NCBI GenBank assembly: GCA_036787775.1
Contig: DAIQOR010000001.1
Location: 30,521 to 94,520 of the forward strand
Length of the DNA stretch: 64,000 bases
Direction of reading: 5' to 3'
Source of the DNA: a bacterium
GTDB lineage: Archaea > Nanobdellota > Nanobdellia > Pacearchaeales > GW2011-AR1
Position numbers and translations under genes: made by a program. The first letter of the stretch is position 1. Every line of letters starts with the position of its first letter. The notes below the pieces were generated by a model, which was not told the origin of the DNA, did no database searches, and saw only the letters and a list, made by a program, of their open reading frames with translations. This document shows positions 1 through 28,443 of this stretch, piece after piece.

Positions 1-25
1 TAAAATATCTTTTTTCTAAATTTAT

Positions 26-1180: not shown

Positions 1181-1184
1181 CTCT

Positions 1185-3417: not shown

Positions 3418-3466
3418 AGTATTTCATCTCGGCAAACTTTATAAGTTTTAATTATTCTCCCTCTCT

Positions 3467-4563: not shown

Positions 4564-4962
4564 TTTTTTTAGCGCTTTTTTTAACTCTTCAACTGACTCA
4601 AAAATTTTCATAGAACCAATTAAAATTGCGCTCAAATATTCAATTGCATTTTCAACCGGCTCGTCAGTTTTTATTCCAAAAGTAGGCACGCCTTTCGCAT
4701 AAGCATAACCAATCTCCCAAGCAGTTCCAGCACCAACATGAAGCCCGTCAAGATTTGCCAAAACGAAATCACAATTTTCAAAACCTTTAATTATATCTCC
4801 TTCGAAAATTTTTTTTACATCTTGAACCTCGCTATATAATCCAACATCTCTATGGGGCAAAAAAGTTTCAAAACCCAAAGATTCGCACAATTCAGCAAGA
4901 ACTTCCAATCGTTCTCTTTCTGTCTTGTTCGTCAATTTTCCCGCAATATACACTTTCTTCAT
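4555..4962 (-). CDS. Nucleoside 2-deoxyribosyltransferase-like protein (PF05014-like)
   Basis: MKKVYIAGKL... and DGLHVGAGTAWEIGYAYAKGVP motif typical of NDT-like Rossmann family; 135 aa. Confidence 0.55.
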   Translation of the reverse strand: MKKVYIAGKLTNKTERERLEVLAELCESLGFETFLPHRDVGLYSEVQDVKKIFEGDIIKGFENCDFVLANLDGLHVGAGTAWEIGYAYAKGVPTFGIKTDEPVENAIEYLSAILIGSMKIFESVEELKKALKKLI

Positions 4963-4995
4963 AAACCTTATATAACGAACCCCGTTTTAAAGTTT

Positions 4996-6357: not shown

Positions 6358-6391
6358 AAACAAATAAAAACGCTTTTTGGCTAAATTTATT

Positions 6392-7924
6392 ATGGACGAA
6401 ACTCAGAAAGAATTAGAAAATAGAAAAAAGAAAATTCTAAACAAAATTATTCCCTTCATGAAGGAACCACTAAATCTTGCTTTAGTTACAGTTTTATTAT
6501 TCGCATTTGTCTTAAGATTATATTATTTCATAAAAGTAGGAAACCAGCCTCTTTGGTGGGATGAACTTTGTTATGGAAGTTTAGCAAAAAATTTTATAAC
6601 ACACACGTGGGATAGCACAACCTTAATCTTAGGAGAAACGGCAATAAGGCCAGTCCTTTTTCCCTTACTTTGGTCAATTCTTTTAAGAGTCGGAATTCCA
6701 GAAGGAGGAGTAAGATTTTTTTTAGAGTTTATTCCTTCAATTCTTTCTGTATTTTTTGTTTATCTAATTGGCAAAGAAACATTTAATAAAAGGGTAGGGA
6801 TTATATCCGCATTTATTTTTTCAGTTTTATGGATACACTTATTTTATACAGTTAGATTATTAACACATGCCCCCGCACTAGTATTTTTATTTTCCAGCAT
6901 ATATTTGTTTATGAAAGCTACGGAAACAAAATTTAATTTCAATCTTTTCACCATATCATTAATCCTTCTTTCTCTCAGCACATTAATGAGATATCCAAAG
7001 GGAATAATTTTCTTTGTGTATTTATTTATGTTGGTAATAGATAAAAAATTACTATTAAAAAATTTCAAATTTTGGAAAGCGGGCATTTTAGGAATCTCTC
7101 CAATGATCGTGTTTTTTATTTATAATTTTGTAAAATACCAAAATATATTTCCTGCCCTTTTAGGAGGAGGATATCTGGATAAAGGGGGATCCCCCCTTAT
7201 TAAACCGATTGCGTTTAATCTTTTAAATTTTATTCCAGTTTATCTTAAAACAACTTTCTTTATATTTTTCTTAATTGGTTTATTGTTAATTTTATTTGAA
7301 TTAATCACAGGATACAATTTAATACCAAAGATAAAAAAACTGAAAAATAGTCTAATTTTAATTTTAATTTTAATTTTAATTTATTCATTTTTCATATTTT
7401 ATATGCGAGCTGCTGAAGATAGATGGTTATTTCCAACAATTTTACCATTAGCAATTATAACTTCTTTAGGAATTGATTTTGTCTATAATCAAATAAAAAA
7501 ATATAACAAACAAATAGCAGTCTTATGCGTGATTCTTATTTTAGGATTTGGAGCTTATTCGCAATTAACTTTTGCAGATTCGCTGATAAAAGGAAAGCAA
7601 GAAAGTTACCTTCAGATGAGACAGGCATTCGAATGGATAGGTTCTAACACCCCTGAAGATTCAATCATAGCCGGTTTAGGGATAGAACCTTATACTGTTT
7701 ACTATGCAAAAAGAGATTATATCAATCTCCCCCAGAATTATTCGGAAGTTGGAGTGGCTTTGGAGGCAGATTATCTTGTAGCACATCTTTTTGCGGGAAA
7801 TCCTCCAAAATATTTAAGTGAATATCTTTCTGAAAATCAAGATATTTGGCAGCCCTTAAATGCCTGGTTTTTAGATGAAGCAAAAACTCAACCAGCAGTT
7901 ATTTTATATAAAAAGGTTCAATAG
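6392..7924 (+). CDS. GT-C fold membrane glycosyltransferase (ArnT/PMT-like, GT39/GT83-like)
   Basis: About 12 predicted TM helices, first-loop WWDE acidic motif; ORF track starts at TTG 6377, first ATG at 6392. Confidence 0.55.
   Translation: MDETQKELENRKKKILNKIIPFMKEPLNLALVTVLLFAFVLRLYYFIKVGNQPLWWDELCYGSLAKNFITHTWDSTTLILGETAIRPVLFPLLWSILLRVGIPEGGVRFFLEFIPSILSVFFVYLIGKETFNKRVGIISAFIFSVLWIHLFYTVRLLTHAPALVFLFSSIYLFMKATETKFNFNLFTISLILLSLSTLMRYPKGIIFFVYLFMLVIDKKLLLKNFKFWKAGILGISPMIVFFIYNFVKYQNIFPALLGGGYLDKGGSPLIKPIAFNLLNFIPVYLKTTFFIFFLIGLLLILFELITGYNLIPKIKKLKNSLILILILILIYSFFIFYMRAAEDRWLFPTILPLAIITSLGIDFVYNQIKKYNKQIAVLCVILILGFGAYSQLTFADSLIKGKQESYLQMRQAFEWIGSNTPEDSIIAGLGIEPYTVYYAKRDYINLPQNYSEVGVALEADYLVAHLFAGNPPKYLSEYLSENQDIWQPLNAWFLDEAKTQPAVILYKKVQ
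7354..7383 (+). repeat. Tandem hexanucleotide (aatttt)x4-5 inside GT-C gene, encoding (LI)n
   Basis: aattttaattttaattttaattttaattta read directly; in-frame. Confidence 0.8.
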
Positions 7925-7983
7925 GAAAAATATATTCTTTAGAGAACATAAATCTTTATTAATGAAGCTCATATTTTTCAAAT

Positions 7984-9036
7984 ATGAAAGTCTTGATAAC
8001 TGGCGGAGCAGGATTTATAGGAACTAACGCAGCAGAATTTTATGCTTCAAGAGGGGATGAAGTAGTTCTTTTTGATAATTTAAGTAGGAGAGGAAGCGAA
8101 GCAAATTTATCTTATTTAGAAAAAAGTTTAGGAGATAAAATAAATTTCATAGAAGGAGATATTAGAAATAGGTGGGACATTGAACGAGCTATTTGTAATA
8201 ACCGAGATACGGATTTGATTTTACATTTAGCTGCACAAGTCGCGGTAACAACTTCTGTAAATGACCCACGAGAGGATTTTGATATTAATGCTTTAGGAAC
8301 TTTTAATGTTTTGGAAGCCATGAGAAGTTTAAAAAATAAGTGCGGAGCAAGTCCCATTTTTATTTACGCCTCCACAAATAAAGTTTATGGGGGTATGGAA
8401 GATGTCGGAATAATCGAAAAAGATGGGAGATACACATATGAAAATTTACCAGAAGGAATTAACGAAGAAAGAGGTTTGGATTTTCATAGCCCTTATGGAT
8501 GTTCTAAGGGAACAGGTGATCAGTATGTAAGAGATTACTCTAGGATTTATTGTTTAGATACAATTGTAATGAGGCAATCTTGTATTTATGGAGAAAGACA
8601 ATTCGGGGTTGAAGATCAAGGTTGGTTGGCTTGGTTTACAATTGCACAAGCTTTAGGAAAACCAATAACTGTTTATGGGGACGGAAAGCAAGTACGAGAC
8701 GTTTTATGGGTTAATGATTTAATTGATGCTTACGAAAAAGCAAGACAGAATATAGAAAAAACTAAAGGACAAATATATAATCTTGGAGGGGGCCATAAAA
8801 ATCAACTTTCCTTATTAGAATCTTTTAGTTTACTTAAATCTTTATCTGGAAAAGATATTCCTTTAAAGTATGAAGGATGGAGGCCGGGGGACCAGAAAGT
8901 TTGTTTTATGGATATTTCTAAAGCAGAAAACGATTTTAAATGGAAACCCACAATCTCTCCTTCAGAAGGAATGAAAAAATTATATGATTGGGTGAATTCA
9001 AACAAATCCGAGATAGAAAAATATTTCCCAAATTAA
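7984..9036 (+). CDS. NAD-dependent sugar epimerase/dehydratase (extended SDR; CDP-paratose-2-epimerase / UDP-Glc-4-epimerase-like)
   Basis: VLITGGAGFIGTNAAEF Rossmann, YASTNKVYG and catalytic YxxxK-type region (SPYGCSKGTGDQYV). Confidence 0.7.
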   Translation: MKVLITGGAGFIGTNAAEFYASRGDEVVLFDNLSRRGSEANLSYLEKSLGDKINFIEGDIRNRWDIERAICNNRDTDLILHLAAQVAVTTSVNDPREDFDINALGTFNVLEAMRSLKNKCGASPIFIYASTNKVYGGMEDVGIIEKDGRYTYENLPEGINEERGLDFHSPYGCSKGTGDQYVRDYSRIYCLDTIVMRQSCIYGERQFGVEDQGWLAWFTIAQALGKPITVYGDGKQVRDVLWVNDLIDAYEKARQNIEKTKGQIYNLGGGHKNQLSLLESFSLLKSLSGKDIPLKYEGWRPGDQKVCFMDISKAENDFKWKPTISPSEGMKKLYDWVNSNKSEIEKYFPN

Positions 9037-9037
9037 A

Positions 9038-10171
9038 ATGAAAATAATTCTTTTTTATGAGTTTCTTTCTGAACAAGGGGGTCTAGAGCGAGAGATAATT
9101 AATCACGCAACCTTTCTAAAAGAGGAAGGGTATGAGGTTTTAATTTTAACTTGTCATAAAAGTAAAGATATAGAAAAACTTTTACCCTTCGGAGACTTAA
9201 AAATTGAACAAATATCCTCGGTAAAAACTCCTTTTCAAACAATCAATCTCGCCTTATGTTTTTTAGGTTTTAATAAAATTAAAGAATTTAATCCAGATTT
9301 ATTTCTCAGTTATAGTTTTCCATGCAATTTTCTTTTAAGAAAAAAAAGACAGAAAAAAATAAATTATGTGAACCATTTTCCGCATTATCTTTATCTGAAA
9401 GGAAAAGAAAAGTTAGAATGGGCAAATTCTTTTGATAGAAAAGTTTCACTTGTCTTGGAATTTTTTCTGGGAAGATGGTTAAGAAAGAGAGACAAAGAAT
9501 TATTGAAAGAAAATAAATTATTATTTGTAAATAGCGTATTCACTAAGAAAAAAATAGATGAAATTTATCAAGTAAATTCTATTGTGAGTTATCCACCTAT
9601 AGATCCAAGAATAAAGCCAGTAAAATCAAATCTTCAAGAAAAATTTATTTTCTCTTGTGGAAGAATTATTCCCGATAAAAAATATGAGTGGTTAATTGAA
9701 TCTTGCTCTAAGATGAAAAATAAATTGCCCCTTTATCTTGCAGGCCAAGGAGATAAAAATTATATAGGTTCATTAAAAAATTTAGCTAAGAAATATAATG
9801 TTAGATTAAAATTTTTAGGCAAGTTGGATACGATGAAAATAATAAAATATTATTCTTCTGCAGAAGTTTTCGCTTTTTCGACCCCTGGAGAAGATTTTGG
9901 ATTAGTGCCTGCAGAAAGTTTAACTTGCGGAACTCCTTGTGTTGTGTGGGAAGATTCTTCAGGACCAACAGAACAAATTGTTGAAGGAATTAACGGATTT
10001 TTAGCAAAACCATATGATTTACAAAGTTTTGCAAATAAGTTGGATTTAGTCTTAGATAATAAATTTAAAGAAAAAAATAAAAAGAAAATTTTGGATTCTT
10101 CAAAAAAATTTTCGGCAGAAGAAGTAAAGAAAAGTTTTATTAAGGAGGTAAATTTAATTTTTAAAAGATAA
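9038..10171 (+). CDS. Glycosyltransferase family 4
   Basis: C-terminal GEDFGLVPAESLTCGTPCVV GT4 motif; 377 aa. Confidence 0.7.
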   Translation: MKIILFYEFLSEQGGLEREIINHATFLKEEGYEVLILTCHKSKDIEKLLPFGDLKIEQISSVKTPFQTINLALCFLGFNKIKEFNPDLFLSYSFPCNFLLRKKRQKKINYVNHFPHYLYLKGKEKLEWANSFDRKVSLVLEFFLGRWLRKRDKELLKENKLLFVNSVFTKKKIDEIYQVNSIVSYPPIDPRIKPVKSNLQEKFIFSCGRIIPDKKYEWLIESCSKMKNKLPLYLAGQGDKNYIGSLKNLAKKYNVRLKFLGKLDTMKIIKYYSSAEVFAFSTPGEDFGLVPAESLTCGTPCVVWEDSSGPTEQIVEGINGFLAKPYDLQSFANKLDLVLDNKFKEKNKKKILDSSKKFSAEEVKKSFIKEVNLIFKR

Positions 10172-10173
10172 AA

Positions 10174-11184
10174 ATGGAAGAATTAAAAAAATTTTATTCT
10201 GGAAAAAAGGTTCTTGTAACGGGGGGGGCAGGATGTATTGGAAGTTGTTTAGTTGAAAAATTAGATGAATTTGGGGCACAAATATCAATCTTAGATAATA
10301 TGATGAGGGGTCAGGAAGCCGTTAGAAATTTAGAAGGAGTATTAAATTCTACAAGTACTCCTCCAAAGATATTTATCAAAGATATCACAGATGTTTTCCA
10401 AGTAAAGAATATTTTTAAAAAAGAAAATGGGTTTGATATTGTATTCCATTTAGCAGCATTACCTAGCCACAGACTTGCTTTAGAAGATCCAAGAGCTTAC
10501 ATAGAAACAGATGTAATGGGAACCACAAACATTTTGGAGGTTGCGAGATTATCAAAAACTCCAACGGTAGTTTTTGCTTCGTCAAACAAAGTTTATGGAA
10601 AGCAAACGCCCCCATTTAGGGAAGATAAGCCTTGTTTACCAGAAGGTCCTTATGCTTTAGCAAAGTTTCAATCAGAACAAATATGTCAAATGTATTCTAC
10701 TTATTGGGGGTTAAATACTCCTGTCGTAAGATTCCATCATGTTCTTGGACCACGAACTCAACCAGATAGAGAAATTTCTATTTTTACGGAACAAATAATT
10801 AAAGGAGAGACTCCAAAAGTTCATGGGGTTTATGAAGGAGAGATATTTATTTCCTGCGCAGCAGATTACACAGATGTTAATGATGCTGTTGAAGGAGCTT
10901 TAAGAGCTGGAATGATTAAAGGATTTGATACATTTAATTTAGCTACTGGAAAAGTTACAACTGTTGAGGATATTGCAAAAAAGATTATGGTCAAATTAGG
11001 AAAAGATATCCCAATAGAATATAAAAAAATGTTATCTCACGAAACTTTAGTTCATTTATCAGATATTTCAAAAGCAGAAAAGATTCTTGGATGGACTCCA
11101 AAAAGAACGGTTGATGAATCAGTAAGAGATTATGTTGATTGGAGATTAAAATTTGGTAAAAGGCCAGACGCCTTTTATAAATAA
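10174..11184 (+). CDS. NAD-dependent nucleotide-sugar epimerase/dehydratase (extended SDR)
   Basis: VLVTGGAGCIGSCLVEKL Rossmann, ASSNKVYG, YALAK catalytic motif. Confidence 0.7.
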   Translation: MEELKKFYSGKKVLVTGGAGCIGSCLVEKLDEFGAQISILDNMMRGQEAVRNLEGVLNSTSTPPKIFIKDITDVFQVKNIFKKENGFDIVFHLAALPSHRLALEDPRAYIETDVMGTTNILEVARLSKTPTVVFASSNKVYGKQTPPFREDKPCLPEGPYALAKFQSEQICQMYSTYWGLNTPVVRFHHVLGPRTQPDREISIFTEQIIKGETPKVHGVYEGEIFISCAADYTDVNDAVEGALRAGMIKGFDTFNLATGKVTTVEDIAKKIMVKLGKDIPIEYKKMLSHETLVHLSDISKAEKILGWTPKRTVDESVRDYVDWRLKFGKRPDAFYK

Positions 11185-11189
11185 TTAAT

Positions 11190-12581
11190 TTAAACAAAAT
11201 CTATTGTCAAAGCCATTCTTATATCTTCAAAGAACGTTTTTTCTTTAAAACTTTTTTTAAGTCTTTTTAAAATAAAATTAGGATTAAGATAAACTTTTCG
11301 GTAAAATTTTCTAAAATATTTTTCAATTAAAGGCCAAGATAAATTTTCATGATTATAAATTGATGAAGGCGTTGAATAAAATTTAAATTTTTCCCAGTCA
11401 TGCGTTTTAATCAAATTTTTTTTATCCAATTCATTAAACATTTCTGTGGCAGGTAAAGGAATTGTAATACTTATTTTTGCCAGATCCAAATTAAGTTCTT
11501 TTGCAAAATCAATTGTTTGTTGCATTGTTTCTTTAGTTTCTCCCGGAAGTCCAATCATAAAAAATCCCGCAACTTCCAGTTTTGCCTTTTTAGCCAATTT
11601 TACTGAATTTCTAACTTGCTCTAAAGTTATACCTTTTTTAATATTATTCAAAATTTGTTGGTTTCCAGATTCAATTCCAAAATAAACTCGATAACATCCA
11701 GCTCTTTTCATTTTGTCTAATAATTCGAAGTCAACTCTATCCACTCTTATTCCTGTGATTGTACTCCATGCAAGCTTATTCTTTTTTTCAATCAGCAAAT
11801 CACAAATTTTTTTAGCCCGAGTCATATCTGTGGTAAATCCATCATCTGTGAGATGAACTTCTTTAAAACCCATTTTTTCTATCTTGCTAAACTCTTGTGC
11901 CACTCTTTCAGGAGATTTTACTCTAAACGTTCGTCCAAAACAACTTTTATTACAATAGATGCATCCATAAACACAACCTCTGGAAGTTTCAAGCCAGGCC
12001 ACAGGGTTATTTTTTGCAATTGCCGACGGGACTTTATACTTTTGAATTTCATAGAGGAAATGAGCTGGAAAAGGTAATTCATCTAAATCTTTAATAAAAT
12101 CCGCCCGTTTATTTATTTTGATCTCATTCTTGACCCTATATCCAACCCCTTTAATAAAATTTAATTTTTTCCCTTCAACAAGTTCTTGAATCACAAAATC
12201 TCCTTCCCCAATCACAACGATATCTAAAATTGTTTCCTCTAAAACTTTTTCTGGAAAAGAAGAACAATGGGGCCCCCCGCCAACAAGAATTATTTTTTCA
12301 TTAAAATTTTTAACAATCTTTGCAACCCGATTAGCTTCATTAATTAAAGGTGTAACAAAACTAATTCCCACATAATCTGGATTAAATTCTTCTAATAATT
12401 TTGAAAATTTTTTTTCATCATAAAGATTAAAATCAAAAATTTTCACTTGATGTTTTTTTTCAGTTAAACTTCCAGCAATACAGGCAAGACCTAAAGGAGG
12501 TGTGGAAGGAGCAATCCCTTTCAAACTGGTCTTTTCATAAATTTTTTCAAAAGGAAGATTAACTAAAATTATTTTTTTCAT
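11190..12581 (-). CDS. Cobalamin(B12)-binding domain radical SAM protein
   Basis: N-terminal B12-binding-like domain; CxxxCxxC = GCVYGCIYCNKS; 463 aa; paralogous in architecture to 1185..2726. Confidence 0.7.
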   Translation of the reverse strand: MKKIILVNLPFEKIYEKTSLKGIAPSTPPLGLACIAGSLTEKKHQVKIFDFNLYDEKKFSKLLEEFNPDYVGISFVTPLINEANRVAKIVKNFNEKIILVGGGPHCSSFPEKVLEETILDIVVIGEGDFVIQELVEGKKLNFIKGVGYRVKNEIKINKRADFIKDLDELPFPAHFLYEIQKYKVPSAIAKNNPVAWLETSRGCVYGCIYCNKSCFGRTFRVKSPERVAQEFSKIEKMGFKEVHLTDDGFTTDMTRAKKICDLLIEKKNKLAWSTITGIRVDRVDFELLDKMKRAGCYRVYFGIESGNQQILNNIKKGITLEQVRNSVKLAKKAKLEVAGFFMIGLPGETKETMQQTIDFAKELNLDLAKISITIPLPATEMFNELDKKNLIKTHDWEKFKFYSTPSSIYNHENLSWPLIEKYFRKFYRKVYLNPNFILKRLKKSFKEKTFFEDIRMALTIDFV

Positions 12582-13291
12582 TTTTTAATAAAACCGAGCC
12601 GGTGTTTGAAAATTAACCACAACATTCCTAATCCTATTACAAATGTTTTTTTGAAATCTCCCGTAGCTGAAGAAACTCCGACTCTTCTAAGATATCTAAC
12701 AGGAATTTCAATAAATTTAATATTATTTCGGATAACTTGCAACATCATATCTGGATTAAATTCCATCCCAGTAATTGTAAATTTATTTTTAATTTTCTCA
12801 TAAGCTTTCCGATTAATTAATCTATAAGTGCATCCAACATCTGAAAGAAAATTAGTTCCAAACATAAATTCAACCATTTTTGCAACAGCAAAATTTCCCC
12901 ACTTCAAAAACCACCCCATGTTTGCGCCACGACCAATCATAATCGAAGTTGTCCGAGTTCCAAAAACCACGTCAAAATTATCTGAATAAGCCAAAAATTT
13001 CACCACATCATTTGGGTCAAAAGTTCCATCTGGTTCGGACATAATTATCAAATCTCCAGAAGATTCGTACAACGCTCTACGATACCCCCAACCGAACCCT
13101 TGTTTTTTTTCCAAAAAATATTTCGCATTCGTTTTCAAAATCTCTTCTTTCGTGCCTTCACGAGCGTTGTTATCCACAGCAATCACTTCGTCAACATAAC
13201 CTGTTTTAAACAACCCATCAATAAATTCCCTTATGGAATCTTTTTCATTATACGTCGAAAAAACAACCGAAACCTTTTTTCCTTTCCACAT
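12578..13291 (-). CDS. GT2 polyprenyl-phosphate glycosyltransferase (Dpm1/AglD/AglJ-like)
   Basis: VSVVFSTYNEKDSI, VIAVDNNAREGT, 237 aa soluble GT-A typical of dolichol-phosphate sugar synthases. Confidence 0.65.
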   Translation of the reverse strand: MWKGKKVSVVFSTYNEKDSIREFIDGLFKTGYVDEVIAVDNNAREGTKEEILKTNAKYFLEKKQGFGWGYRRALYESSGDLIIMSEPDGTFDPNDVVKFLAYSDNFDVVFGTRTTSIMIGRGANMGWFLKWGNFAVAKMVEFMFGTNFLSDVGCTYRLINRKAYEKIKNKFTITGMEFNPDMMLQVIRNNIKFIEIPVRYLRRVGVSSATGDFKKTFVIGLGMLWLIFKHRLGFIKK

Positions 13292-18549: not shown

Positions 18550-21306
18550 TTAGAATTTCCAAGGAACATATTTAGATGAGTCTCTATCAAGATATTTCTC
18601 TTTTGTTTTTTCATCCACGGAAAATCCTTCAGGATATTCAATTTCCCAAATTTTTATTGGGCCCCTAATTCCTTGGTAATAAACAAATTCTGGAAGATTC
18701 ATTCCTTGGCTCCTCAAACTAGAAATAATTAAATCTGATTCAACATGAGCAATTTTAAAATTTGGAAAATTATTGAAAGGGTCATTCAAAATATATTTCT
18801 GAACAAGCATACCCCTCATTAATCTTGGGCTTAAGAAAAGAGCCATTCCAATAGGATTTGTTTGCACATTTTGCCCATTAGAACTTATTGAAGGAAAAAT
18901 AAAAATTGTTGCATTTATGCCGGACTTGAAATCATAAAAACCATCATTTGTTGAAACATACCTAACATTCACTTTGTGTTGAACTCCGTTATAAACCATT
19001 ATGACATATGGTTGAAGAGCAGATAACTTTCCATTTTCGTCTTTTTTAGAAGGAACAATTGCTGCTCCGATGCCAGTATTTCCTGAAGGAAGAAAAATTT
19101 CCTTTCCATTTTCTTCAATAATTAAATCTTCATCCAAAGCAATTCCTCCAGAATACACATAAGTAGTTTCTTCTTTTGTTTCATAAGTTTGTTTTTCATC
19201 CAATCCCATTACTCCTATCCAAGAAACTCTATCAAAATCCTCATCAGAACCGATGCTAGAAAAAGCCCCATATTTTCCAATATCTGAAGAGTCAATTAAA
19301 AAATAATTTGCATCATGAGTATACAAAAATTCCAAAGCATCTTTTTGATTGTCTCCTGTCAGAACTAATCTACCCATCCAATAATTCCAGAAAGAAATAG
19401 CATTCCCTCCATCCAAAACTGTTGCCCTTTTACCAATACTTTGCACCCAATATCCATAATCCCACCAGTGCCCAAAAACAGATTCTTGAGGCGTCTCAGT
19501 TCTAACCCAATCCATCGCCTTTTGCCATTGCTGAGTATAACCCGAAGGAATCATATTATATGATTGAGCCTTTATTTGTCCGTAATATGTCCAGAAAATA
19601 AAAATACTCAATAAAATAATTGTAATTGCAAGGATTCCCAAAATTAATCTCTTTGTCTCATTCTTTTCCTTGAAAAAACTTTCCACACTTTCATAATTCA
19701 AATAAGCCAAAAAAATCGGAGCAATAGGTCCCAAAACCATAATCAATCGAACTGCACCTCTTGCACTAAAAATAGAAATTAATAAAACAACAAGTAAAAA
19801 AATATACTCAAATCTTATTTTTTTCAATAATTTTTTATCTTCTTTATTATATCTCAAATAAATCTTTGTTGCCAAATAGAAAAATAATAAAACTGCTCCA
19901 TAATAAACAAATTTACTTATAAAATTCTCTCCATTAAAAATACTTGAACCAGAATATCTTGAGAAAATCATTCCCAACAACACCAACGCAAAAGAACCAG
20001 TTAAAATCCAAGCATCTTTTTTCTTAAGTCTTTTCAACATTTTTTTAAATAGAGCAATTGAACCAATAACAAATGCCCAGAACATTAAAGCGATTCCTCC
20101 AACATGCGGACCAAAACTTGCTTCCCATTCTATAAAGTAAGGTTGCCTATTTTCTGCAACAGTTGTGTTCCATCTTCCAGTAACTGGTTTAAATATTTGC
20201 TGATGGATTGCCTTTGCTTTATCCATAACAAAAGAAGTGTCTACAAAGACTGTTGCAAAAATAATCACTAAAAGAATGGTGAAAATTAAAGAGATAATTT
20301 GTTTTGGAAGTTTTATCTTTTTTAATGTTTCATTTTTTGAAATTTTTGTATTCCATATTAAAAAGTGAATTACCATTATGATTAAAACCAGGAATGCAAT
20401 TCCCATATCAAGCGAAGTTATCATATTTTTTAATTTCATATATGGTTGAATGATAAGAGTTAGAATTGTTGAAATAAGAATCCATATAATATAGACTGTG
20501 TATTGATTTAAGTCAACCTTATTCAAGATGAATGCAATTAAGACGGATATCGCTAAAGGAATATAAATAAACATTACTCCTCCCCAAATCGCTCCCATAA
20601 GGGATGTTGAAATTCCAGTCAACACCCCAAAAAGAACCGCGAATTTAATCTTTTCACTTTTCCATGCTTTTAAAAATAAATAAAATGTTAAGAACATAAA
20701 GAAAAATGCCGCAGATTCTTTTTCAGGAATTCCAGCAATTGTTCGAGATAAAAATACGGGAGTAACAATCATAAAAAAAGTCGAGATTAAAGCAATAATA
20801 TTCGCCTTAGTTTTGCTCTTAGGACTTTTTCTAACAAAAACTTCTCTAACAAAAAGGAAGAAAGAAATTATTGTCAAAGCAAACATAATCACAGGAAACA
20901 ATGCAGCAGAAAATTCAATATTATTTGCAGAATAAAAAAGATTTGTAATTGAGTAAGTCCAAACAATCATTTTTGGGAGAAGCATGGTTTCTTTTGCTGT
21001 TTCAAAACCAAGAGGGGTATTTCTCATCATGTCTATTTTAGCTACAGAACCATTGTCAATAATTTCCCCTGCATATCGTGTAAATAACCATGGATCTAAA
21101 TCTGGTCCGAGTGTCCAATTATTTGTTGTAAAATCCCACAAACCGGGAAATCCGCCGTGATCCTGCATGGGCAAAGTACGAATATAAATTCCCAAAACTA
21201 AAGCAACAATCAACAATCCAATAACCCAAACTTGCTTCTTCTTTAGAAAATCTAAAACCTTCGCTTTTCTTTTTTCCAAATCCTCGAATGTATTTTCTGT
21301 TTCCAT
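18550..21306 (-). CDS. aglB: Archaeal oligosaccharyltransferase AglB (STT3)
   Basis: 918 aa, N-terminal multi-TM domain, diagnostic WWDYGYW motif (HWWDYGYWVQ), C-terminal periplasmic domain. Confidence 0.9.
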   Translation of the reverse strand: METENTFEDLEKRKAKVLDFLKKKQVWVIGLLIVALVLGIYIRTLPMQDHGGFPGLWDFTTNNWTLGPDLDPWLFTRYAGEIIDNGSVAKIDMMRNTPLGFETAKETMLLPKMIVWTYSITNLFYSANNIEFSAALFPVIMFALTIISFFLFVREVFVRKSPKSKTKANIIALISTFFMIVTPVFLSRTIAGIPEKESAAFFFMFLTFYLFLKAWKSEKIKFAVLFGVLTGISTSLMGAIWGGVMFIYIPLAISVLIAFILNKVDLNQYTVYIIWILISTILTLIIQPYMKLKNMITSLDMGIAFLVLIIMVIHFLIWNTKISKNETLKKIKLPKQIISLIFTILLVIIFATVFVDTSFVMDKAKAIHQQIFKPVTGRWNTTVAENRQPYFIEWEASFGPHVGGIALMFWAFVIGSIALFKKMLKRLKKKDAWILTGSFALVLLGMIFSRYSGSSIFNGENFISKFVYYGAVLLFFYLATKIYLRYNKEDKKLLKKIRFEYIFLLVVLLISIFSARGAVRLIMVLGPIAPIFLAYLNYESVESFFKEKNETKRLILGILAITIILLSIFIFWTYYGQIKAQSYNMIPSGYTQQWQKAMDWVRTETPQESVFGHWWDYGYWVQSIGKRATVLDGGNAISFWNYWMGRLVLTGDNQKDALEFLYTHDANYFLIDSSDIGKYGAFSSIGSDEDFDRVSWIGVMGLDEKQTYETKEETTYVYSGGIALDEDLIIEENGKEIFLPSGNTGIGAAIVPSKKDENGKLSALQPYVIMVYNGVQHKVNVRYVSTNDGFYDFKSGINATIFIFPSISSNGQNVQTNPIGMALFLSPRLMRGMLVQKYILNDPFNNFPNFKIAHVESDLIISSLRSQGMNLPEFVYYQGIRGPIKIWEIEYPEGFSVDEKTKEKYLDRDSSKYVPWKF

Positions 21307-22383: not shown

Positions 22384-23205
22384 ATGAAATCATTTTTACA
22401 AAAAAGAAAACAATTTAATTTAATTGCCAGAGATATAAAATCAATTAAAATTCAAGGTGCAAGAAATGTCGCGAAGTCTGCGTTGAAAGCTTATCACTTA
22501 ATTCCGACGGAGAGGTCAAAAAAGAAACTTCTAAAACTTCGTCCGACAGAACCGATGCTTCAAAATGTTTTGGAAAAAGCAACAACCCAACCTTACAAAA
22601 AAGTTTTAGCTCATTTTGACGAAGCTCAAGAAAAAATAAACAAAAATGTTTTCCAATTAATAAATAATCACAACGTTCTTTTCACACACTGTCATTCCAC
22701 AAATGTTATCAACGCTTTAATTTATTCAAAAAAGAAAGGAAAAAAATTCGAAGTTTACAACACCGAAACAAGACCATTATTTCAAGGAAGAAGAACAGCA
22801 AAAGAATTGAAAAGAAATAAAATTAAAGTAACTATGTTTGTAGATTCTGCCCTAGGAATTGCTTTAAGCAAAGAACAGGGAACAAAAAAAGTAAATAAAA
22901 TTTTTCTCGGAGCTGACGCACTAACAAAAAAAGGAGTAATTAATAAGGTGGGTTCAGAAGTAATTGCACAAATCGCAAAAAATCAAAACATTCCATTTTA
23001 TATCGTCGCTGATTCTTGGAAATACACAAACAAAGATTTATCAATTGAACAAAGAGAATTAAATGAAGTTTGGGATAAAGCACTAGAGCACATCAAAATA
23101 AAAAATCCTGCATTCGAATTTGTCGATAAAAAATATATTACTGGAATTGTAACAGAATTAGGAATTATGAAATATGGGGAATTTGTTAAAAAAATAAAAA
23201 GTTAA
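22384..23205 (+). CDS. eIF-2B alpha/beta/delta family protein (candidate ribose-1,5-bisphosphate isomerase)
   Basis: IF-2B fold motifs FTHCHSTNV, IFLGADALTKKGVINKVGS, YIVADSWKY; ORF track starts at TTG 22357, first ATG 22384. Confidence 0.6.
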   Translation: MKSFLQKRKQFNLIARDIKSIKIQGARNVAKSALKAYHLIPTERSKKKLLKLRPTEPMLQNVLEKATTQPYKKVLAHFDEAQEKINKNVFQLINNHNVLFTHCHSTNVINALIYSKKKGKKFEVYNTETRPLFQGRRTAKELKRNKIKVTMFVDSALGIALSKEQGTKKVNKIFLGADALTKKGVINKVGSEVIAQIAKNQNIPFYIVADSWKYTNKDLSIEQRELNEVWDKALEHIKIKNPAFEFVDKKYITGIVTELGIMKYGEFVKKIKS

Positions 23206-23705
23206 CAACACCCACACTCTTCATCTTCGCAAGTACAATCTTCATCTTCACAGCATTTCTCTTCTTTTCCTTCACACTTACAATTTCCACCACAAGCATG
23301 ACCCCCGTTTTCCATTCCTTGAGCATCCATAACTGCTTTCGTCAATTCTTGATTAATATCTTCCATCGCGTTATCCAATTCAATTCTCGCTTTTCCCAAT
23401 CTCCTGAGTTGTTCTTGAATTAATGCCTTTGTTTCATCGATACTTTTCTTAACTAAATTTTTTTCTCCGACATCCACCAACAAATCCTCAGAAATTAATT
23501 TCGCTTTCGCAAAGATCCCTCGACCAATCGGCGCCATAATTTCCTTCCCTTTAGCACCTTTCAATTCATCAAGTCCTAAATTCAAAGAACTCAACTCAAC
23601 AGTCCCTTTCTCCACTGCCTCAAGCTGTTGCTGAATTTGCTGAATCTGTTGCTCAAACATCTGAAACTTTATCATAAGTTCTTGGTTCATTTCCATAATA
23701 TTCAC
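23202..23705 (-). CDS. pfdA: Prefoldin alpha subunit with Cys-rich acidic C-terminal tail
   Basis: Coiled coil - beta hairpin (KEIMAPIGRGIFAKAKLISEDLLVDVG) - coiled coil; tail HACGGNCKCEGKEEKCCEDEDCTCEDEECGCC. Confidence 0.65.
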   Translation of the reverse strand: MNIMEMNQELMIKFQMFEQQIQQIQQQLEAVEKGTVELSSLNLGLDELKGAKGKEIMAPIGRGIFAKAKLISEDLLVDVGEKNLVKKSIDETKALIQEQLRRLGKARIELDNAMEDINQELTKAVMDAQGMENGGHACGGNCKCEGKEEKCCEDEDCTCEDEECGCC

Positions 23706-23732: not shown

Positions 23733-24137
23733 TTAAGCAACATTCAAAACTTTTCTCAGAATAATACTCGAAGCAATCGCCCCGCCGAAATACCACCAGA
23801 ACCAACTTGCAAGCACTTCGGTATAAATTCCCCTTATCCAAGCGAACACGAGAATCAATGGAATAAAAGTATACAACATCGGTTTCATCGAATGTTTCAT
23901 CATCTCCATCGAGCAAGTCATCATTTCTTTCTGAATCTCGCCCTGCTTCTTCAAATCTCCCTTCGCATCTTTAATCTTAATCTGACACGCCTTCTGCACA
24001 GCCTTCAATTCCTTAAGTCTCTTCTGATCCGTAAACTTCTTCGTAACCAGCGTCATAAAAAGCGTAATCAAAAATGCAACTAAAACAACACTCACTTTCG
24101 CATTAACAATCATCCATTCTTTTATTATTTCCAACAT
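23733..24137 (-). CDS. DUF106 family membrane protein (archaeal YidC/Oxa1/EMC3-like insertase candidate)
   Basis: TM1 - basic coiled coil - TM2 - TM3 topology in 134 aa; immediately upstream of secY. Confidence 0.5.
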   Translation of the reverse strand: MLEIIKEWMIVNAKVSVVLVAFLITLFMTLVTKKFTDQKRLKELKAVQKACQIKIKDAKGDLKKQGEIQKEMMTCSMEMMKHSMKPMLYTFIPLILVFAWIRGIYTEVLASWFWWYFGGAIASSIILRKVLNVA

Positions 24138-24233
24138 AAAATAAAAAAGAAAAAATAGTTTTTAAGAGTTTAGTTTTATTCATCCCCCATTTTTCTTCTT
24201 AATTTTCCCAAATTTTAGATTAAAGAATCAAAA

Positions 24234-25688
24234 TTAACCACCCATGAATTTCTTCATAGCAGGATTCATATCTTCTGCGTGTTTCTGTGCAATGCTCTGA
24301 TAGAACTGGAACATAATCATAATTACCAACAGCATCGCTGTTCCTGCAACCAAAGCACCCATCATGTTTGTTATCGACGCCAAGAAACCAATTGCCGCAC
24401 CACCCATAACTGTCAAAGGCATAATGTATCTATCTAAAATACTTTCTAAAATTCTAATGTCTTGTCTGAAACCTGCAACTTGCAATCCCGAAGCCGCAAT
24501 TTTCTGAGCCTGCGCTTTTGAATCCATCCCGGAAGTTTTAACCCAGAACACCGAAAAAATAGCACAGAAAATAATAAAGAAAAGCATGTGAGTAATTCCT
24601 TGAATTAAATAAATCCATAAAAATCCTCCCCGGATTAATAATTCTAAAATATTAGTTGAACCTAACCAAAACGCCATTCCCGAAACTGCTTGCCCGTCGA
24701 CAAAGTGTCCAAAGAAAGTAAAGTAAGAAGCAATTTTCGCACTGCCAGCACAAACCGCGCCTTCAACAGCATTATCTAAACAAGGTGCCGCAACATTTTC
24801 AATAAGCCCACCGAACAATTGCATATTTGCCAAAAGTGCCGAAACTAAAATAACTGGAATAACTGAAGCATAAAAGAAAGACAACGGCCACTTAATTGAG
24901 TAACCTCTTATTCTTCCAAAAGATAAAGGAATTTCAACTTTCAAAGATTGTGCCCAAACAACAGCCAAGAAAATAACAATTGTAGCAAGAATTGCCGCCG
25001 CCGCCGAAACAAATTCAATAGGATATTTATTTATCACCGACTGAATTAAAACTAAAATTTTCCCCGAGCAAGCGGTGTTCTTAAAATCTAACAAACAATT
25101 TCTTCCCTGAGTATCAACAAACTGCAACGCGCTCGTAATAATTCTCCACGAAACTCCCGCACCAATAAATAAACTAACTCCTGAACCGAAACCCCATTTT
25201 TCAGAAAGTTCGTTCATATAAAAAATCGCCAGTCCTCCAAGAATCAACTGACCAATAACTATCCAAGTAAAACCTGGCAACGCTTGAAGACCCTGCATCA
25301 AAACATAAATCATCGCCTCGAACACAATAAAAAAGAAAGTTAATAATTTCTGAAGTCCCCCGAAAAACTTTTTACCCTCGGCAGTGGTGGTGTCAATATT
25401 AATAATTCCAGAACCCGACAGCAACTGCAAAATAATCGAAGCCATTACGATTGGACCAATACCTAAAGAAATTATTGAACCAAAATCTGTTCCAAGAATA
25501 ATCGCAAGATATTCAAACCGACTCAAAGCATTCGCCGACAAACCGAAAAGCGAAACATTCGCCAAAATAAAAAACGCTCCCAACACAATTAAAGTCCATT
25601 TCAACTTCGTGTTAAAGTCAAGTTTTTTCTCACTAGGACTCTTCACTTCCGGAATGTAATTAAATAAATCTCTCAAAGCCATTTTCAA
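24234..25688 (-). CDS. secY: Preprotein translocase subunit SecY
   Basis: 484 aa, 10 TM, archaeal SecY N-terminus MKMALRDLFNYIPEV...; follows L15 in ribosomal cluster. Confidence 0.9.
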   Translation of the reverse strand: MKMALRDLFNYIPEVKSPSEKKLDFNTKLKWTLIVLGAFFILANVSLFGLSANALSRFEYLAIILGTDFGSIISLGIGPIVMASIILQLLSGSGIINIDTTTAEGKKFFGGLQKLLTFFFIVFEAMIYVLMQGLQALPGFTWIVIGQLILGGLAIFYMNELSEKWGFGSGVSLFIGAGVSWRIITSALQFVDTQGRNCLLDFKNTACSGKILVLIQSVINKYPIEFVSAAAAILATIVIFLAVVWAQSLKVEIPLSFGRIRGYSIKWPLSFFYASVIPVILVSALLANMQLFGGLIENVAAPCLDNAVEGAVCAGSAKIASYFTFFGHFVDGQAVSGMAFWLGSTNILELLIRGGFLWIYLIQGITHMLFFIIFCAIFSVFWVKTSGMDSKAQAQKIAASGLQVAGFRQDIRILESILDRYIMPLTVMGGAAIGFLASITNMMGALVAGTAMLLVIMIMFQFYQSIAQKHAEDMNPAMKKFMGG

Positions 25689-25728
25689 TAATTAAAAATA
25701 AGAACGAGTATTTTTAAAGGTTGTTAGT

Positions 25729-26223
25729 TTAAATTCTCCATCCATAAGCAGAATATAAAATAGCTTGAGGTTCGTAAACAAGCCATTCCCTCAATTTTTT
25801 TCCAATCAAAGTTCTTCCTTCCTGATCTTCCGTGTGACCATCAATAACATGATACAATTCATGCTCTAAACTGCAAACACTAGAATTTTTATTGAATTTT
25901 ATCAAATGTGTTTTATTTCCAATTTTTTTGGCTCCATTCCCTCGCTTATTAAACTCTCCTTCTTCAAGGTTATACGTTTCCAAAAATTCTTTCCACTTGT
26001 CAGGCGTATAAAAATAAATTTCAATTTCTAAATCTTTTTCTGCTTTCAAATCCTCTCGGATTCTTTGAGTTTCCGCTATTAATTCAGTTTGACTCCTTAT
26101 TTTTGGAGAACTTTTTGCACAATCTGTAGCAATACTCTTGAGAGTTTTTACATAACATTTTGGACTAGCCAAAATAATTGCCGTAGCAATTCCCCCATAA
26201 ATACATTTTCTAAGTGATACCAT
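25729..26223 (-). CDS. Hypothetical HExxH zincin-like protein
   Basis: SLEHELYHVIDGH (HExxH) near C-terminus, hydrophobic N-terminus; inserted between secY and rpl15. Confidence 0.35.
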   Translation of the reverse strand: MVSLRKCIYGGIATAIILASPKCYVKTLKSIATDCAKSSPKIRSQTELIAETQRIREDLKAEKDLEIEIYFYTPDKWKEFLETYNLEEGEFNKRGNGAKKIGNKTHLIKFNKNSSVCSLEHELYHVIDGHTEDQEGRTLIGKKLREWLVYEPQAILYSAYGWRI

Positions 26224-26290
26224 GCCTTTACCGCAACTTTTTACTTATTTAAATCTTTCTATATGTAACTATTTTTTAGAGATAACAGAA

Positions 26291-27721
26291 TTATATTTCA
26301 ACTGCATTCCTATCCACTTTTTTCCTTACAACACCATTTTCATCTTTACAAACTTCGCAACCATGAGAAGTATATTTATGAAGTAATGGACAATTGCCTG
26401 GTCCAGAAACGTCCTTTATTGCAAAAGTTTCTTGATGATAACAACAAGAAAATCCTTTTTCACATTCATTAATTGAAAGATAATCATAAGCTTCTTCAAT
26501 AGGTTCTCCAAGAGCAATATAATCGCCCCTTAACAATTTTCTATAGTAGTATCTTACATTCGGTAAGAAAGTTGAATCTCCTGTAAGAACCAATTTATTT
26601 CCTTCTGGAGTATTAACTTCTATGCTCCCCCCAGTTTCTCCAGATTTTTTTTTCTGAGTAAAAAGAGAATTATACTTTGGTTTTGCTCCAAGCACCCCAA
26701 TCCCAAATATTTGCAGTCCTGCATTTGCGGGATCATTCGGATTTTCATAATAAGCATAAATATTAGAAGTCATTCCATCACTAAACGCTCCTCCATTCTC
26801 AATCCTTAATTCAGCTCTAATTTCTTGCCCATCCACATTTCGAGCATCCACATTAACATATTCAGTTACCCCTCCTTTCAAAGGTCTGAATGAAAAATAT
26901 TTCTGATTAGGAATTCTCAAACTATTTTGAAATTCAACTAAAGGGCATTCCAAATCTTCTACTTCGCATCCACTAACAACTGATAAATCTCCTAATGAAA
27001 CATATGTCCCTTCATGTTTTTTTCCATCAAAAAATAAATTAACTCTTTCATTAAAACTTGTAACATCTATTCCCTGTTGAATTTTTTCATATTTTCCTTC
27101 AAAATTTACAACTTCTCGAGGAGCAATATAAACTTGCCCAGATGAGTCAACTCGCACATTCCCATTAATTGGTTCCGCACATTTTTCACAAGTAATTAAC
27201 TGATTAAATAATTCCCCTCCTGCTTGAGGAATGTTTGCAAGTTCCAACGCAACTTCATTTATTGATTGTCCTTTTTCCACAATTACTTGAACTGAAGGTT
27301 TCTTATCTTTTTCATAAACTAATCTCGCACCTTTTGGAACAAAAACTTTTTCTCCCTCAATTACACAAATAGAAGTTTTAGAAGAGACATAATTTGCTTT
27401 AACCACATTAAAACTTTCATCTAATATAAAATTGTTCTCTTCAACACTTATTCCCTCAAAGTTATTTCCAGAAATATCTGAAATTCCATCCGTATTAGCA
27501 AATTCTCCAACTACTGATATCTGGTAATTTCCCCCTTGCTCTGCAATTTTTTCTCCTTCAAAAACATTAATCGTTTCTATATTATTTATCACTCCCGGTT
27601 CAATCCTGATTTTCTCAAGAGAGAATGTTTCGGCCATAACTAAATTGCAAGTCAAGGACAAAAAAAACATTCCAATAATTAGACAAATAATTTTTCTTTT
27701 CATTTTCCGACAAAAATCCAT
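26291..27721 (-). CDS. Secreted hypothetical protein with C-terminal Cys-rich module
   Basis: N-terminal signal/TM (IICLIIGMFFLSLTCNLVMA), 476 aa, C-terminal CEKGFSCCYHQ...GNCPLLHKYTSHGCEVC. Confidence 0.4.
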   Translation of the reverse strand: MDFCRKMKRKIICLIIGMFFLSLTCNLVMAETFSLEKIRIEPGVINNIETINVFEGEKIAEQGGNYQISVVGEFANTDGISDISGNNFEGISVEENNFILDESFNVVKANYVSSKTSICVIEGEKVFVPKGARLVYEKDKKPSVQVIVEKGQSINEVALELANIPQAGGELFNQLITCEKCAEPINGNVRVDSSGQVYIAPREVVNFEGKYEKIQQGIDVTSFNERVNLFFDGKKHEGTYVSLGDLSVVSGCEVEDLECPLVEFQNSLRIPNQKYFSFRPLKGGVTEYVNVDARNVDGQEIRAELRIENGGAFSDGMTSNIYAYYENPNDPANAGLQIFGIGVLGAKPKYNSLFTQKKKSGETGGSIEVNTPEGNKLVLTGDSTFLPNVRYYYRKLLRGDYIALGEPIEEAYDYLSINECEKGFSCCYHQETFAIKDVSGPGNCPLLHKYTSHGCEVCKDENGVVRKKVDRNAVEI

Positions 27722-28413
27722 TTAAATTCTGATTTGGAATCTTCTAAAACAAAAACAATTTCTTCATCATCCTCAAAATTTTCCATATTAAAATCATTTT
27801 CTTCTAATAATTCATTCGAACAAGTCAAGCAATGTCCATACTCATTTGTTGTATCAATCGAAACAATGTTTTCGATAACTTCATACATTTTTCCCATCTT
27901 AATATCAACTTCTGAAGAATATGCTTCTTTTAAATTTGAGGAGGATTCACTACCAATTTTTTTAACGTTTAAATCATAATTTAATTCAGTGGAAACTTTC
28001 AAGTTTTCTATTTCAACATTCACCGAGGGTTGTCGTGAGCTAATTTCTAAATTTTCAAAATTTTCAAAATCTCCGATACAAAGAGAAAAACTTTCCAAAA
28101 TATAATTCGAGATCTCTCCTCCCAAATCTATTTTTGAAGGCAAAAGATTCTGATCTCCAGAATAATAATATGGGAGGCCTTCAGAATTTAAATTTTGTGT
28201 GGAAGGATTTTTTTGCTCACCAAATTCATACATTCCAATTAAACTCGCTTCATCAAAGCAATCTTGAACAAATTCTCTAACACCCTCGACATCTGGTGTA
28301 TAAATTCTATCTTCATTAGATGATTCCCCTCGCAACAAAAAATATCCTCCAACAGCCCCAACTATCACAACAGCAATTATAATAAAAATTGTAACCTGTC
28401 CACTCTTTTTCAT
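27700..28413 (-). CDS. Membrane-anchored hypothetical protein (N-terminal TM, acidic ectodomain)
   Basis: MKKSGQVTIFIIIAVVIVGAVGGYFLL anchor; 22-nt overlap with downstream gene suggests co-transcription. Confidence 0.4.
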   Translation of the reverse strand: MKKSGQVTIFIIIAVVIVGAVGGYFLLRGESSNEDRIYTPDVEGVREFVQDCFDEASLIGMYEFGEQKNPSTQNLNSEGLPYYYSGDQNLLPSKIDLGGEISNYILESFSLCIGDFENFENLEISSRQPSVNVEIENLKVSTELNYDLNVKKIGSESSSNLKEAYSSEVDIKMGKMYEVIENIVSIDTTNEYGHCLTCSNELLEENDFNMENFEDDEEIVFVLEDSKSEFKWIFVGK

Positions 28414-28443
28414 AAATTAAATTAGAATTCACACTATATAAAA

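Follow-up and report, generated by a model that had tools for sequence, protein, structure and literature searches.

A candidate surface-display cassette between the genes for ribosomal protein L15 and SecY in a Pacearchaeota-type archaeon

Little is known of how uncultivated DPANN archaea such as the Pacearchaeota attach to their hosts and exploit them, and the proteins that they secrete mostly lack annotation. Here we describe three genes, p237, p470 and p164, that lie between rpl15, the last gene of a long ribosomal protein (r-protein) operon, and secY in a 64-kb stretch of the genome of a Pacearchaeota-type DPANN archaeon (contig DAIQOR010000001.1; hereafter the window, in whose numbering all genes and coordinates are given). 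We favor the reading that they form a surface-display or host-interaction module, in which a widespread two-gene unit of p237 and a secreted partner is joined by an HExxH protein and has its own promoter, at an operon boundary that repeatedly holds accessory genes. The probability that we assign to this reading is about 0.55.

Among the closest described systems are the class III signal proteins (PF04021, Class_IIIsignal/DUF361), which include the EppA-processed Epd pilins of Methanococcus maripaludis. The pilins cut by EppA carry a short leader ending in Gly, with Gln at position +1 and Glu at +5 (PMC3875500). Class III genes are known to stand alone outside the main pilus loci (PMC4858521), and type IV filament (TFF) system 1 has been reported in DPANN archaea (bioRxiv 10.64898/2026.04.22.720090). 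A second point of comparison is offered by pairs of a minor pilin or anchor with a large adhesin, such as the PilY1-like adhesins encoded beside pilins and the adhesins of the archaeal subsystems 4A and 4B. The cassette shares with these pairs a gene for a small, N-terminally anchored protein directly 5' of one for a large, fast-evolving secreted protein, but similarity to PilY1 or to another known adhesin was detected neither in sequence nor in fold, and no ATPase or platform genes were seen at the cassette loci.

The locus also resembles the variable islets found at conserved junctions, in that the same junction carries differing cargo in different genomes (a surface cassette, MazE-PIN, Fic, PemK, regulators or small open reading frames, ORFs). 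It differs from them in that the window site is without integrase, tRNA or repeats, and in that it lies at the end of a universal r-protein operon, where spacing is normally tight. The kind of element is familiar, an anchor and secreted-protein cassette in a variable site; what is new is the N-terminal motif, the coupling of the two genes, the promoter, the avoidance of glycosylation sequons and the recurrent location between L15 and SecY. No description of the p237 or partner families was found in Pfam, NCBIfam, PDB or the searched literature, and a literature search for described L15-SecY insertions returned nothing relevant.

The p237-partner module and its predicted export

On the minus strand of the window, the genes run in the order L30 (28953-29315, assigned by Pfam and NCBIfam), L15 (28444-28953; Pfam PF00828, E 2.2e-10, and NCBIfam), p237 (27700-28413), p470 (26291-27703), p164 (25729-26223) and SecY (24234-25682, or from a TTG start at 25688; Pfam PF00344, E 1.5e-54; NCBIfam NF006341, 309.6 bits, over cut-off). 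L15 and SecY form the upstream and downstream boundaries of the cassette, and the gap between them amounts to 2.7 kb. This order, with both flanks identified by Pfam and NCBIfam, bears out the initial annotation of the window, which had placed three same-strand non-ribosomal genes between rpl15 and secY. The reported 22-nt overlap between the first two of them needs correction. It presupposes the first ATG of the middle gene (27721, 476 aa), whereas the start is most likely the ATG at 27703 (MKRKIICLII...), which gives 470 aa, as does the public gene call, and reduces the overlap with the stop of p237 to four nucleotides, ATGA (27700-27703).

The p237-p470 pair is one copy of a recurrent arrangement. 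Homologs of p237 numbered 8 in a word-indexed search and at least 233 among metagenomic relatives in a scan with a family alignment. Directly after 58 of 80 p237-family genes comes a large same-strand ORF (250-1961 aa), and most of the other family genes lie at contig ends. The commonest spacing within the pair is the ATGA overlap (24 of the 58), and a 1-nt spacer occurs in 14. At loci L007, L008 and L010 (L numbers denote the fetched loci), as at the majority of metagenome loci, the large ORF behind the p237-type gene begins with a Sec-type signal peptide, and many cassette loci hold two modules each. The window shows the same organization, a p237-type gene with a coupled large signal-peptide ORF.

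That p470 belongs with these partner proteins was established with a hidden Markov model (HMM) built from 7 partners, p470 excluded. Among the 121 window ORFs it matched p470 with 27.5 bits (E 8.6e-9), and the runner-up reached 4.2 bits. An exhaustive phmmer search of 1.84 billion representatives returned only four weak relatives (E 1e-5 to 7e-4, residues 8-303), and a word-indexed search of 5.8 billion clusters returned only p470 itself. The alignment with the partners P0010-P0013 likewise covers residues 8-303, and the blocks that line up p470 with the partners read G-N-x-F-E-N-I, LDE-x-G-x-I-x-KA-x-F and FFDGKKHEG-x-YVS. In these alignments p470 comes out as a divergent partner protein, with the N-terminal ~300 residues as its conserved part.

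The hydrophobicity profile of p470 indicates a Sec-type signal peptide, MKRKIICLIIGMFFLSLTCNLVMA|ET (27632-27703, minus strand), and equivalent N-termini are found in partners at other loci. Together with the C-terminal Cys-rich stretch (6 Cys in residues 414-452 of the 470-aa protein; 26348-26464, minus strand), it accounts for the signal peptide and Cys-rich module described earlier for this protein. The Cys-rich stretch has no counterpart in the partner alignments and is lineage-specific. Structure prediction, which had been proposed as a check, was only partly informative: the AlphaFold2 (AF2) model is poor overall, with a predicted local distance difference test (pLDDT) score of 44, and reaches moderate values (~65-80) for residues 90-260, which form beta strands. 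The protein is described here as secreted and probably beta-rich.

Further support for export of the partners comes from their N-glycosylation sequons, which we counted in 57 distinct partner proteins from loci L007-L170 (52 kaa, thousand amino acids). The motif N-x-S/T occurs 153 times against 438 expected (ratio 0.35, over 20 standard deviations), and 20 of the 57 proteins are without any sequon. Both proteins of the window pair contain none, where 3.5 would be expected in p470 and 2.5 in p237. Control motifs in the partners stay near expectation, with observed/expected ratios of 0.89 for the reverse motif S/T-x-N, 0.90 for N-x-A/G, 1.17 for D-x-S/T and 1.14 for Q-x-S/T. The N-x-S/T ratio is 0.80 in the short forms of the p237 family, 0.77 in other signal or anchor proteins of the same loci and 0.93 in proteins without transmembrane (TM) segments, which are cytoplasmic-like. 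The window itself encodes AglB/STT3 (18550-21306), and the depletion argues that the partners are exposed to oligosaccharyltransferase, i.e. exported, and that their glycosylation is selected against.

The AglB/STT3 gene, of 918 aa, belongs to a large glycosylation and cell-envelope cluster at positions 1-21306, a few kb 3' of secY. Several genes of this cluster look like glycosyltransferase or epimerase genes by their N-terminal sequences, and Pfam records were obtained only for AglB/STT3 and a Glycos_transf_4 gene.

The p237 protein (237 aa) is acidic (isoelectric point, pI, 4.15) and has a single N-terminal hydrophobic helix, in agreement with its first description as an acidic, N-terminally anchored protein; an extracytoplasmic alpha/beta domain is predicted to follow. 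In the family alignment, an invariant N-terminus, K..(G/A/S)-Q-V/L-T-I/L-F-I-I or in condensed form (K/R)-G|Q-V-T-I-F-I-I, leads into a hydrophobic helix, and four Cys, including a CxxC, are conserved. The p237 N-terminus reads MKKSG|QVTIFIIIAVVIVGAVGGYFLL, and its motif KKSG|QVTIFII (residues 2-12; 28378-28410, minus strand) resembles a class III signal. The pattern [GAS]Q[VLI]T[ILVM]F is present within the first 80 residues of 97 of 98 members. The AF2 model of p237 is confident and contains one TM helix and then a globular alpha/beta domain.

These features raise the question of whether p237 could be a true type IV pilin-like subunit, cut between G5 and Q6 by a prepilin peptidase and assembled into an Epd-like (TFF system 1) pilus with the partner as tip adhesin or effector. 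The short basic leader ending in Gly, Ala or Ser, the invariant +1 Gln and the hydrophobic stretch of ~20 residues agree with the EppA substrates of M. maripaludis in all but position +5 (PMC3875500), and both the stand-alone class III genes and the report of TFF system 1 in DPANN archaea cited above fit such a role. Position +5, however, is an invariant Phe instead of Glu; the Glu is also absent from the pilins of Sulfolobus and Haloferax. Pfam class III and pilin models matched none of 12 p237-family members even at E 10, and NCBIfam gave no match for p237. A canonical pilin fold, one continuous N-terminal helix packed on a beta-sheet, is not what the model shows, since a low-confidence break at residues 28-35 separates the TM helix from a globular domain whose best fold matches are generic NTF2-like alpha/beta rolls; no convincing neighbor emerged from fold searches with this good model.

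No pilus machinery genes were seen nearby either. A crude motif scan found no Walker motif of a T2SSE-type ATPase in the window or within ~7 kb of any fetched cassette, and a crude motif search for a pilus ATPase and peptidase near the cassettes found none. With Phe at +5, no pilin HMM match, a non-canonical model and no ATPase motif in the vicinity, we retain the pilin-like subunit as a rival to simple surface display and not as a family assignment, and consider it unlikely. The resemblance to class III signal proteins lies in the charged leader ending in Gly, the +1 Gln, the hydrophobic helix, the ability of the genes to stand outside pilus loci and the occurrence of members that are large rather than pilin-sized.

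Two further observations concern the p237 family. The near-invariant CxxC of p237 (C-L-T-C, residues 195-198; 27821-27832) sits at the N-terminus of a predicted helix, a geometry reminiscent of the active sites of thiol-disulfide oxidoreductases; no thioredoxin-like fold match was seen. A long form of the family (~610-650 aa) with the same N-terminal motif precedes giant proteins of ~1900-1960 aa (L131, L135-L137, L140-L145, L154, L156, L163, L167 and others), for which Pfam matches were sub-threshold only, e.g. to a GH2 (glycoside hydrolase family 2) sugar-binding domain with E 0.003.

The third gene, p164, encodes a small, putatively exported protein of 164 aa. Its HExxH motif, already recognized in the initial annotation, is HELYH at residues 121-125, within HELYHVIDGH (residues 121-130; 25834-25863, minus strand). 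A homolog of 171 aa lies between the partner gene and SecY at L126 (BLASTP E 2e-20, 27% identity over the full length), in which the corresponding sequence is HELGHIKGNH. H121, E122, H125 and H130, the His at +5, are identical in the two proteins, as are E151, P152 and A154; H130 and E151 are candidate third zinc ligands. For p164, the earlier view of the products as secreted or surface proteins needs a qualification: its own N-terminal segment is only weakly hydrophobic, whereas that of the L126 homolog is clearly signal-like. Searches of Pfam, NCBIfam and PDB gave no match for p164; a word-indexed search returned nothing, and the representative of its cluster is an 82-aa fragment.

Some partner proteins contain an HExxH element within their C-terminal domain, with FRHE(S/T)AH common to P0010-P0013 and the partners at L011 and L099, and G-x-V-R-P-Y-G-x-S-x-x-EDIAT to P0010-P0013 and the L099 partner. 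These two collinear motifs have possible counterparts in zincins that combine HExxH with a downstream Glu, namely the uncharacterised PDB entry 4l7a, in which the corresponding motifs are HHEFAH and GFVTPYAGSKPSEDIAE, and the Bacteroidetes 'substrate import-associated zinc metallohydrolase lipoprotein' (PDB 9urd). The profile of the fused domain gave a weak collinear two-motif match to 4l7a (E 0.21) and one to 9urd (E 0.28), neither of them significant, and PDB sequence and profile searches in general yielded no significant match. The zincin likeness of p164 itself lies in HELYH and the downstream conserved EPxA, which makes it a candidate zincin, and p470 is without a C-terminal HExxH domain.

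We considered p164 as the split-off C-terminal HExxH domain of a partner and rejected this as a result, keeping it as a lead only, given a non-significant BLASTP comparison and an hhalign probability of 13.6%. That the module is repeatedly accompanied by an HExxH unit, either fused or separate, is suggestive, and homology of the two forms is not established.

The L15-SecY junction and its promoter elements

To place the window in context, 80 SecY loci were fetched from related species-level genomes, of which 73 have L15 and SecY co-oriented on one contig. Measured between the stop of L15 and the start of SecY, the gap does not exceed 50 nt in 45 of these 73; it is 50-150 nt in 10, 150-700 nt in 12 and 2.2-3.4 kb in 5, so large insertions are rare (~7%). 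The premise of a junction that is normally tight thus holds for this clade, with gaps of at most 150 nt in 55 of the 73 relatives; the stronger description of the junction as invariant does not. In the window itself, secY does not come directly after rpl15.

What fills the junction varies. Cassettes of p237 and its partner are present there in at least four other lineages (L016, L053, L080/L162, L112 and L126); at L016, L053 and L080 a p237 homolog lies in the gap, with a large signal-peptide protein encoded directly after it, and L016 and L053 have additional small secreted ORFs. The junction of L022 (6012-7957) carries a MazE/AbrB-type antitoxin, a PIN toxin and a Fic protein, that of L067 (5510-7976) a PemK/MazF toxin and an AsnC-type regulator, and the medium-sized gaps contain unrelated small ORFs. 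Given this varied cargo, the L15-SecY junction is a recurrent landing site for accessory genes in the clade. Whether relatives share the insertion, a check suggested at the outset, thus receives a divided answer: the cassette recurs at the junction in the loci just named, and most of its copies are located elsewhere in the genomes. L011, which by its SecY (82-83% identity) is the closest relative, has the pair 3' of SecY and the DUF106 gene instead. The initial proposal would have been refuted by these genes occupying the site in many unrelated archaea in an established housekeeping role; this did not emerge, and no known function was found for them.

Several junction ORFs and cassette neighborhoods are recorded here as observations in their own right. 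The junction ORFs of L071 (6798-7178) and L028 (459-845), of 126-128 aa, share an HEKAH motif, and that of L031 (7455-7964), of 169 aa, has the N-terminus MDKKGFLLAEETLKMIIAVIG, which resembles pilin signals of the bacterial type; Pfam gave no assignment for any of these ORFs. In L007 (JAUXAD010000001.1, 3792-11874) a p237-partner pair stands between the genes for the PolD small subunit and an HD protein on one side and that for the PolD large subunit (DP2) on the other, a second housekeeping gene pair split by a cassette; SecY lies ~65-70 kb away on the same contig (L030). The genes that flank the L008 cassette (1-12789) encode an SLT (lytic transglycosylase) domain within a protein of 2342 aa, an Amidase_3 protein and a protein with a faint PG_binding_1 match, a peptidoglycan-targeting content on a DPANN-type contig.

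Promoter-like elements divide the window region into units. An exact 8-mer TTTATATA box is located 1 nt after the L15 stop (28435-28442, minus strand), at -29 to -22 from the p237 ATG, and is predicted to drive a leaderless p237-p470 transcript. Among 89 distinct regions upstream of p237-family genes, 41 have TTTATATA, with at most one mismatch, starting precisely at -29, against 0-3 occurrences at other positions. By sequence and positional scan, p164 has a TTTAAATA box at -30 to -23 from its ATG (26246-26253, minus strand), its own predicted promoter. The element AACCTTTAAAAA, similar to a combined B recognition element (BRE) and TATA box, precedes SecY (25711-25722, minus strand), at -36 from the ATG at 25682 and -30 from the TTG at 25688. 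In a comparison of the equivalent position at loci L011-L090, relatives in which SecY is detached from L15 (L016, L022, L044, L053, L059, L067, L080 and others) have AACCTTTAAAAA at ~-29/-30, and it is absent where L15 abuts SecY. SecY in this clade therefore appears to switch between co-transcription and a promoter of its own.

A scan of the window found TATA elements at -29/-30 before the first genes of apparent units, including those for the SpoIIM-like and DUF106 proteins, and no promoter-like TATA before the r-protein genes from 39970 to 28444. As promoter-like elements precede both p164 and SecY, the r-protein operon is likely to end at L15, and p237-p470, p164 and SecY would be separate, largely leaderless transcription units. 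The argument that the cassette must be strongly and constitutively expressed because of its position inside the most highly expressed operon is, with these elements at the cassette and none at internal r-protein genes, unsupported as stated.

Downstream of SecY, the window encodes a DUF106/EMC3-type (YidC-like) protein, prefoldin alpha, an IF-2B family protein, a SpoIIM-like protein and AglB/STT3. In many archaea, adk lies between secY and the DUF106-type gene. In the window (23733-25682), the adenylate kinase gene does not come next after secY; the next gene is the DUF106/EMC3-type one.

The recurrence of the cassette beside SecY might be explained if its genes were housekeeping accessories particular to the lineage that serve protein export or envelope biogenesis, ancestrally in the operon and kept by secY for work with the translocon. 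In at least five lineages the cassette occupies the L15-SecY junction, and in L011 and L151 it lies just 3' of SecY and the YidC-like DUF106 gene. L15 is also immediately upstream in three metagenome loci that were fetched by p237 alone (L112, L126, L162), far above random-neighbor expectation in a genome of several hundred genes, and the window and L126 are fully syntenic from L15 to SpoIIM. A translocon accessory would nevertheless be an odd gene to find missing from the junction in ~90% of relatives, with most copies elsewhere, such as between the PolD subunit genes of L007 or among the murein-hydrolase-type genes of L008. The frequent presence of two modules per locus, the cassette's own promoter and a rate of evolution far above that of SecY and L15, unlike core machinery, also speak against it, and we think this explanation improbable.

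Evolution and mobility of the cassette

The cassette proteins evolve much faster than their neighbors. Between cassette-bearing genomes, identity is 72-83% for SecY and 60-70% for L15; in local alignments it falls to 29-54% for p237 and 21-49% for the partner, which fits cell-surface or host-interaction factors. We also considered a single origin of all junction copies, which the trees do not bear out: in a neighbor-joining (NJ) tree of SecY the junction copies occupy at least four separate places, and in an NJ tree of the p237 domain they fall into three groups, mixed with non-junction copies, although long branches keep both trees from being decisive.

Among the fetched loci, the full layout of the window recurs only once. 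At L126, L15 is followed by a p237 homolog, a 379-aa partner gene with ATGA overlap, the 171-aa gene, SecY and then the downstream genes of the window, with synteny from L15 to SpoIIM. The prefoldin alpha of the window (23202-23705, minus strand) ends in an acidic tail with many Cys and His, among them 10 Cys in the last 40 residues, and such a Cys-rich tail is present in only 5 of 60 relatives, including L126 (11575-12069), L081, L068 and L062. Because layout, neighborhood and prefoldin alpha tail are shared, the cassettes of the window and L126 are probably orthologous and old.

This bears on the possibility that the cassette is a recently acquired selfish or neutral islet in a permissive intergenic site, of no particular benefit to the cell. 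The presence of toxin-antitoxin and Fic genes at the same site in other genomes, a promoter carried along with the cassette and a patchy distribution on the SecY tree are what such an islet would lead one to expect. Marks of a mobile island are nevertheless missing: there is no integrase or recombinase in or next to the cassette, the tRNAs lie far off, at 47 kb and 62 kb, the repeats that turned up are all short and of low identity, and the GC content of 0.30-0.33 is like that of the surroundings. We accordingly rejected the cassette as a mobile element, for want of repeats, integrase and composition anomaly. The three-gene layout has been kept in the window and L126 at only 27-31% protein identity, which indicates long retention under selection, and the strong avoidance of sequons implies selection on an exported product. 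An islet without benefit is, in our judgment, a very doubtful account of the cassette.

The weakest alternative, that some of the three ORFs are non-genes (chance ORFs in AT-rich DNA, or pseudogenes), could appeal to the missing database families and to p164 and p470 being near-orphans in word-indexed searches, and is practically eliminated by p237 homologs in the hundreds, the match of p470 to an independent family HMM, the full-length, syntenic p164 homolog with conserved motifs, and the identical gene calls of 237, 470 and 164 aa on many Rifle aquifer contigs. On the strength of this conservation, we treat all three as genuine conserved genes.

A proposed surface module in DPANN archaea

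All three products look extracytoplasmic, judging by a signal anchor in p237, a Sec-type signal peptide in p470 and conserved Cys. The p237-p470 pair is one copy of a two-gene module that is widespread in DPANN archaea of the Pacearchaeota and Woesearchaeota type. In the surface-display reading, the small acidic p237 would sit in the membrane with its N-terminal helix, possibly processed like a class III substrate, and its rapidly evolving partner, translationally coupled to it, would be exported by its Sec signal peptide and have no membrane anchor of its own. By this scheme, p237 would tether or present the secreted partner on the cell surface in 1:1 stoichiometry, and an HExxH protein, in cis or in trans, may process either the partner or some host-surface target. 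The resulting complex could serve for attachment to, or interaction with, another cell, and in the window the module would be transcribed from its own leaderless-transcript promoter at the operon boundary between L15 and SecY.

Several points weigh against this reading. The three proteins have no assignment in Pfam, NCBIfam, PHROGs, PADLOC or PDB sequence and fold searches. Scans of Pfam and NCBIfam with p237, p470 and p164 gave no family match, and nothing usable was returned when homologs and partner proteins were included in Pfam, NCBIfam, PHROG and PADLOC scans (zero matches in PADLOC, and in PHROG a single marginal match confined to the signal peptide). The AF2 model of p470 is of low confidence and its fold search was uninformative. 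Among the fetched loci, p164-type genes are found only in the window and L126, and the link between p164 and the fused HExxH domain is weak (collinear, with an hhalign probability of 13.6% and a pairwise E of 0.002). The promoters are predicted from sequence alone, and the 30-nt spacer between L15 and p237 is without a terminator-like T-run, so read-through from L15 is possible. Physical interaction between p237 and its partner is deduced from the coupling of their genes.

Membrane anchoring, proteolysis and a part in contact with hosts are functions that we infer for these proteins, and a role in interaction with a host or another cell is plausible for an episymbiont-type lineage. The initial proposal of the three genes as secreted or surface candidates for host interaction is thus supported in part, by their extracytoplasmic features and fast evolution, and loses the support that it drew from expression level. 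More speculatively, and with little confidence, one may picture a hitherto undescribed, DPANN-specific surface apparatus in which a class-III-type anchor displays an unglycosylated, diversifying effector or adhesin for host attachment or attack, with the HExxH enzyme fused or separate, and in which the orthologous copy beside secY has been kept for co-production with the translocon.

The locus is a good lead for DPANN surface biology. The features of the module, namely the motif-bearing anchor, the coupled partner, the optional zincin, the leaderless promoter and the avoidance of sequons, provide testable candidates for surface and host-interaction factors, and the same signatures allow other genomes to be searched for them. 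Nor is the end of the universal r-protein operon closed to insertion: the space between L15 and SecY is, in this clade, an operon boundary that accepts accessory genes, which matters for synteny-based annotation and for the use of the locus as a phylogenetic marker block.

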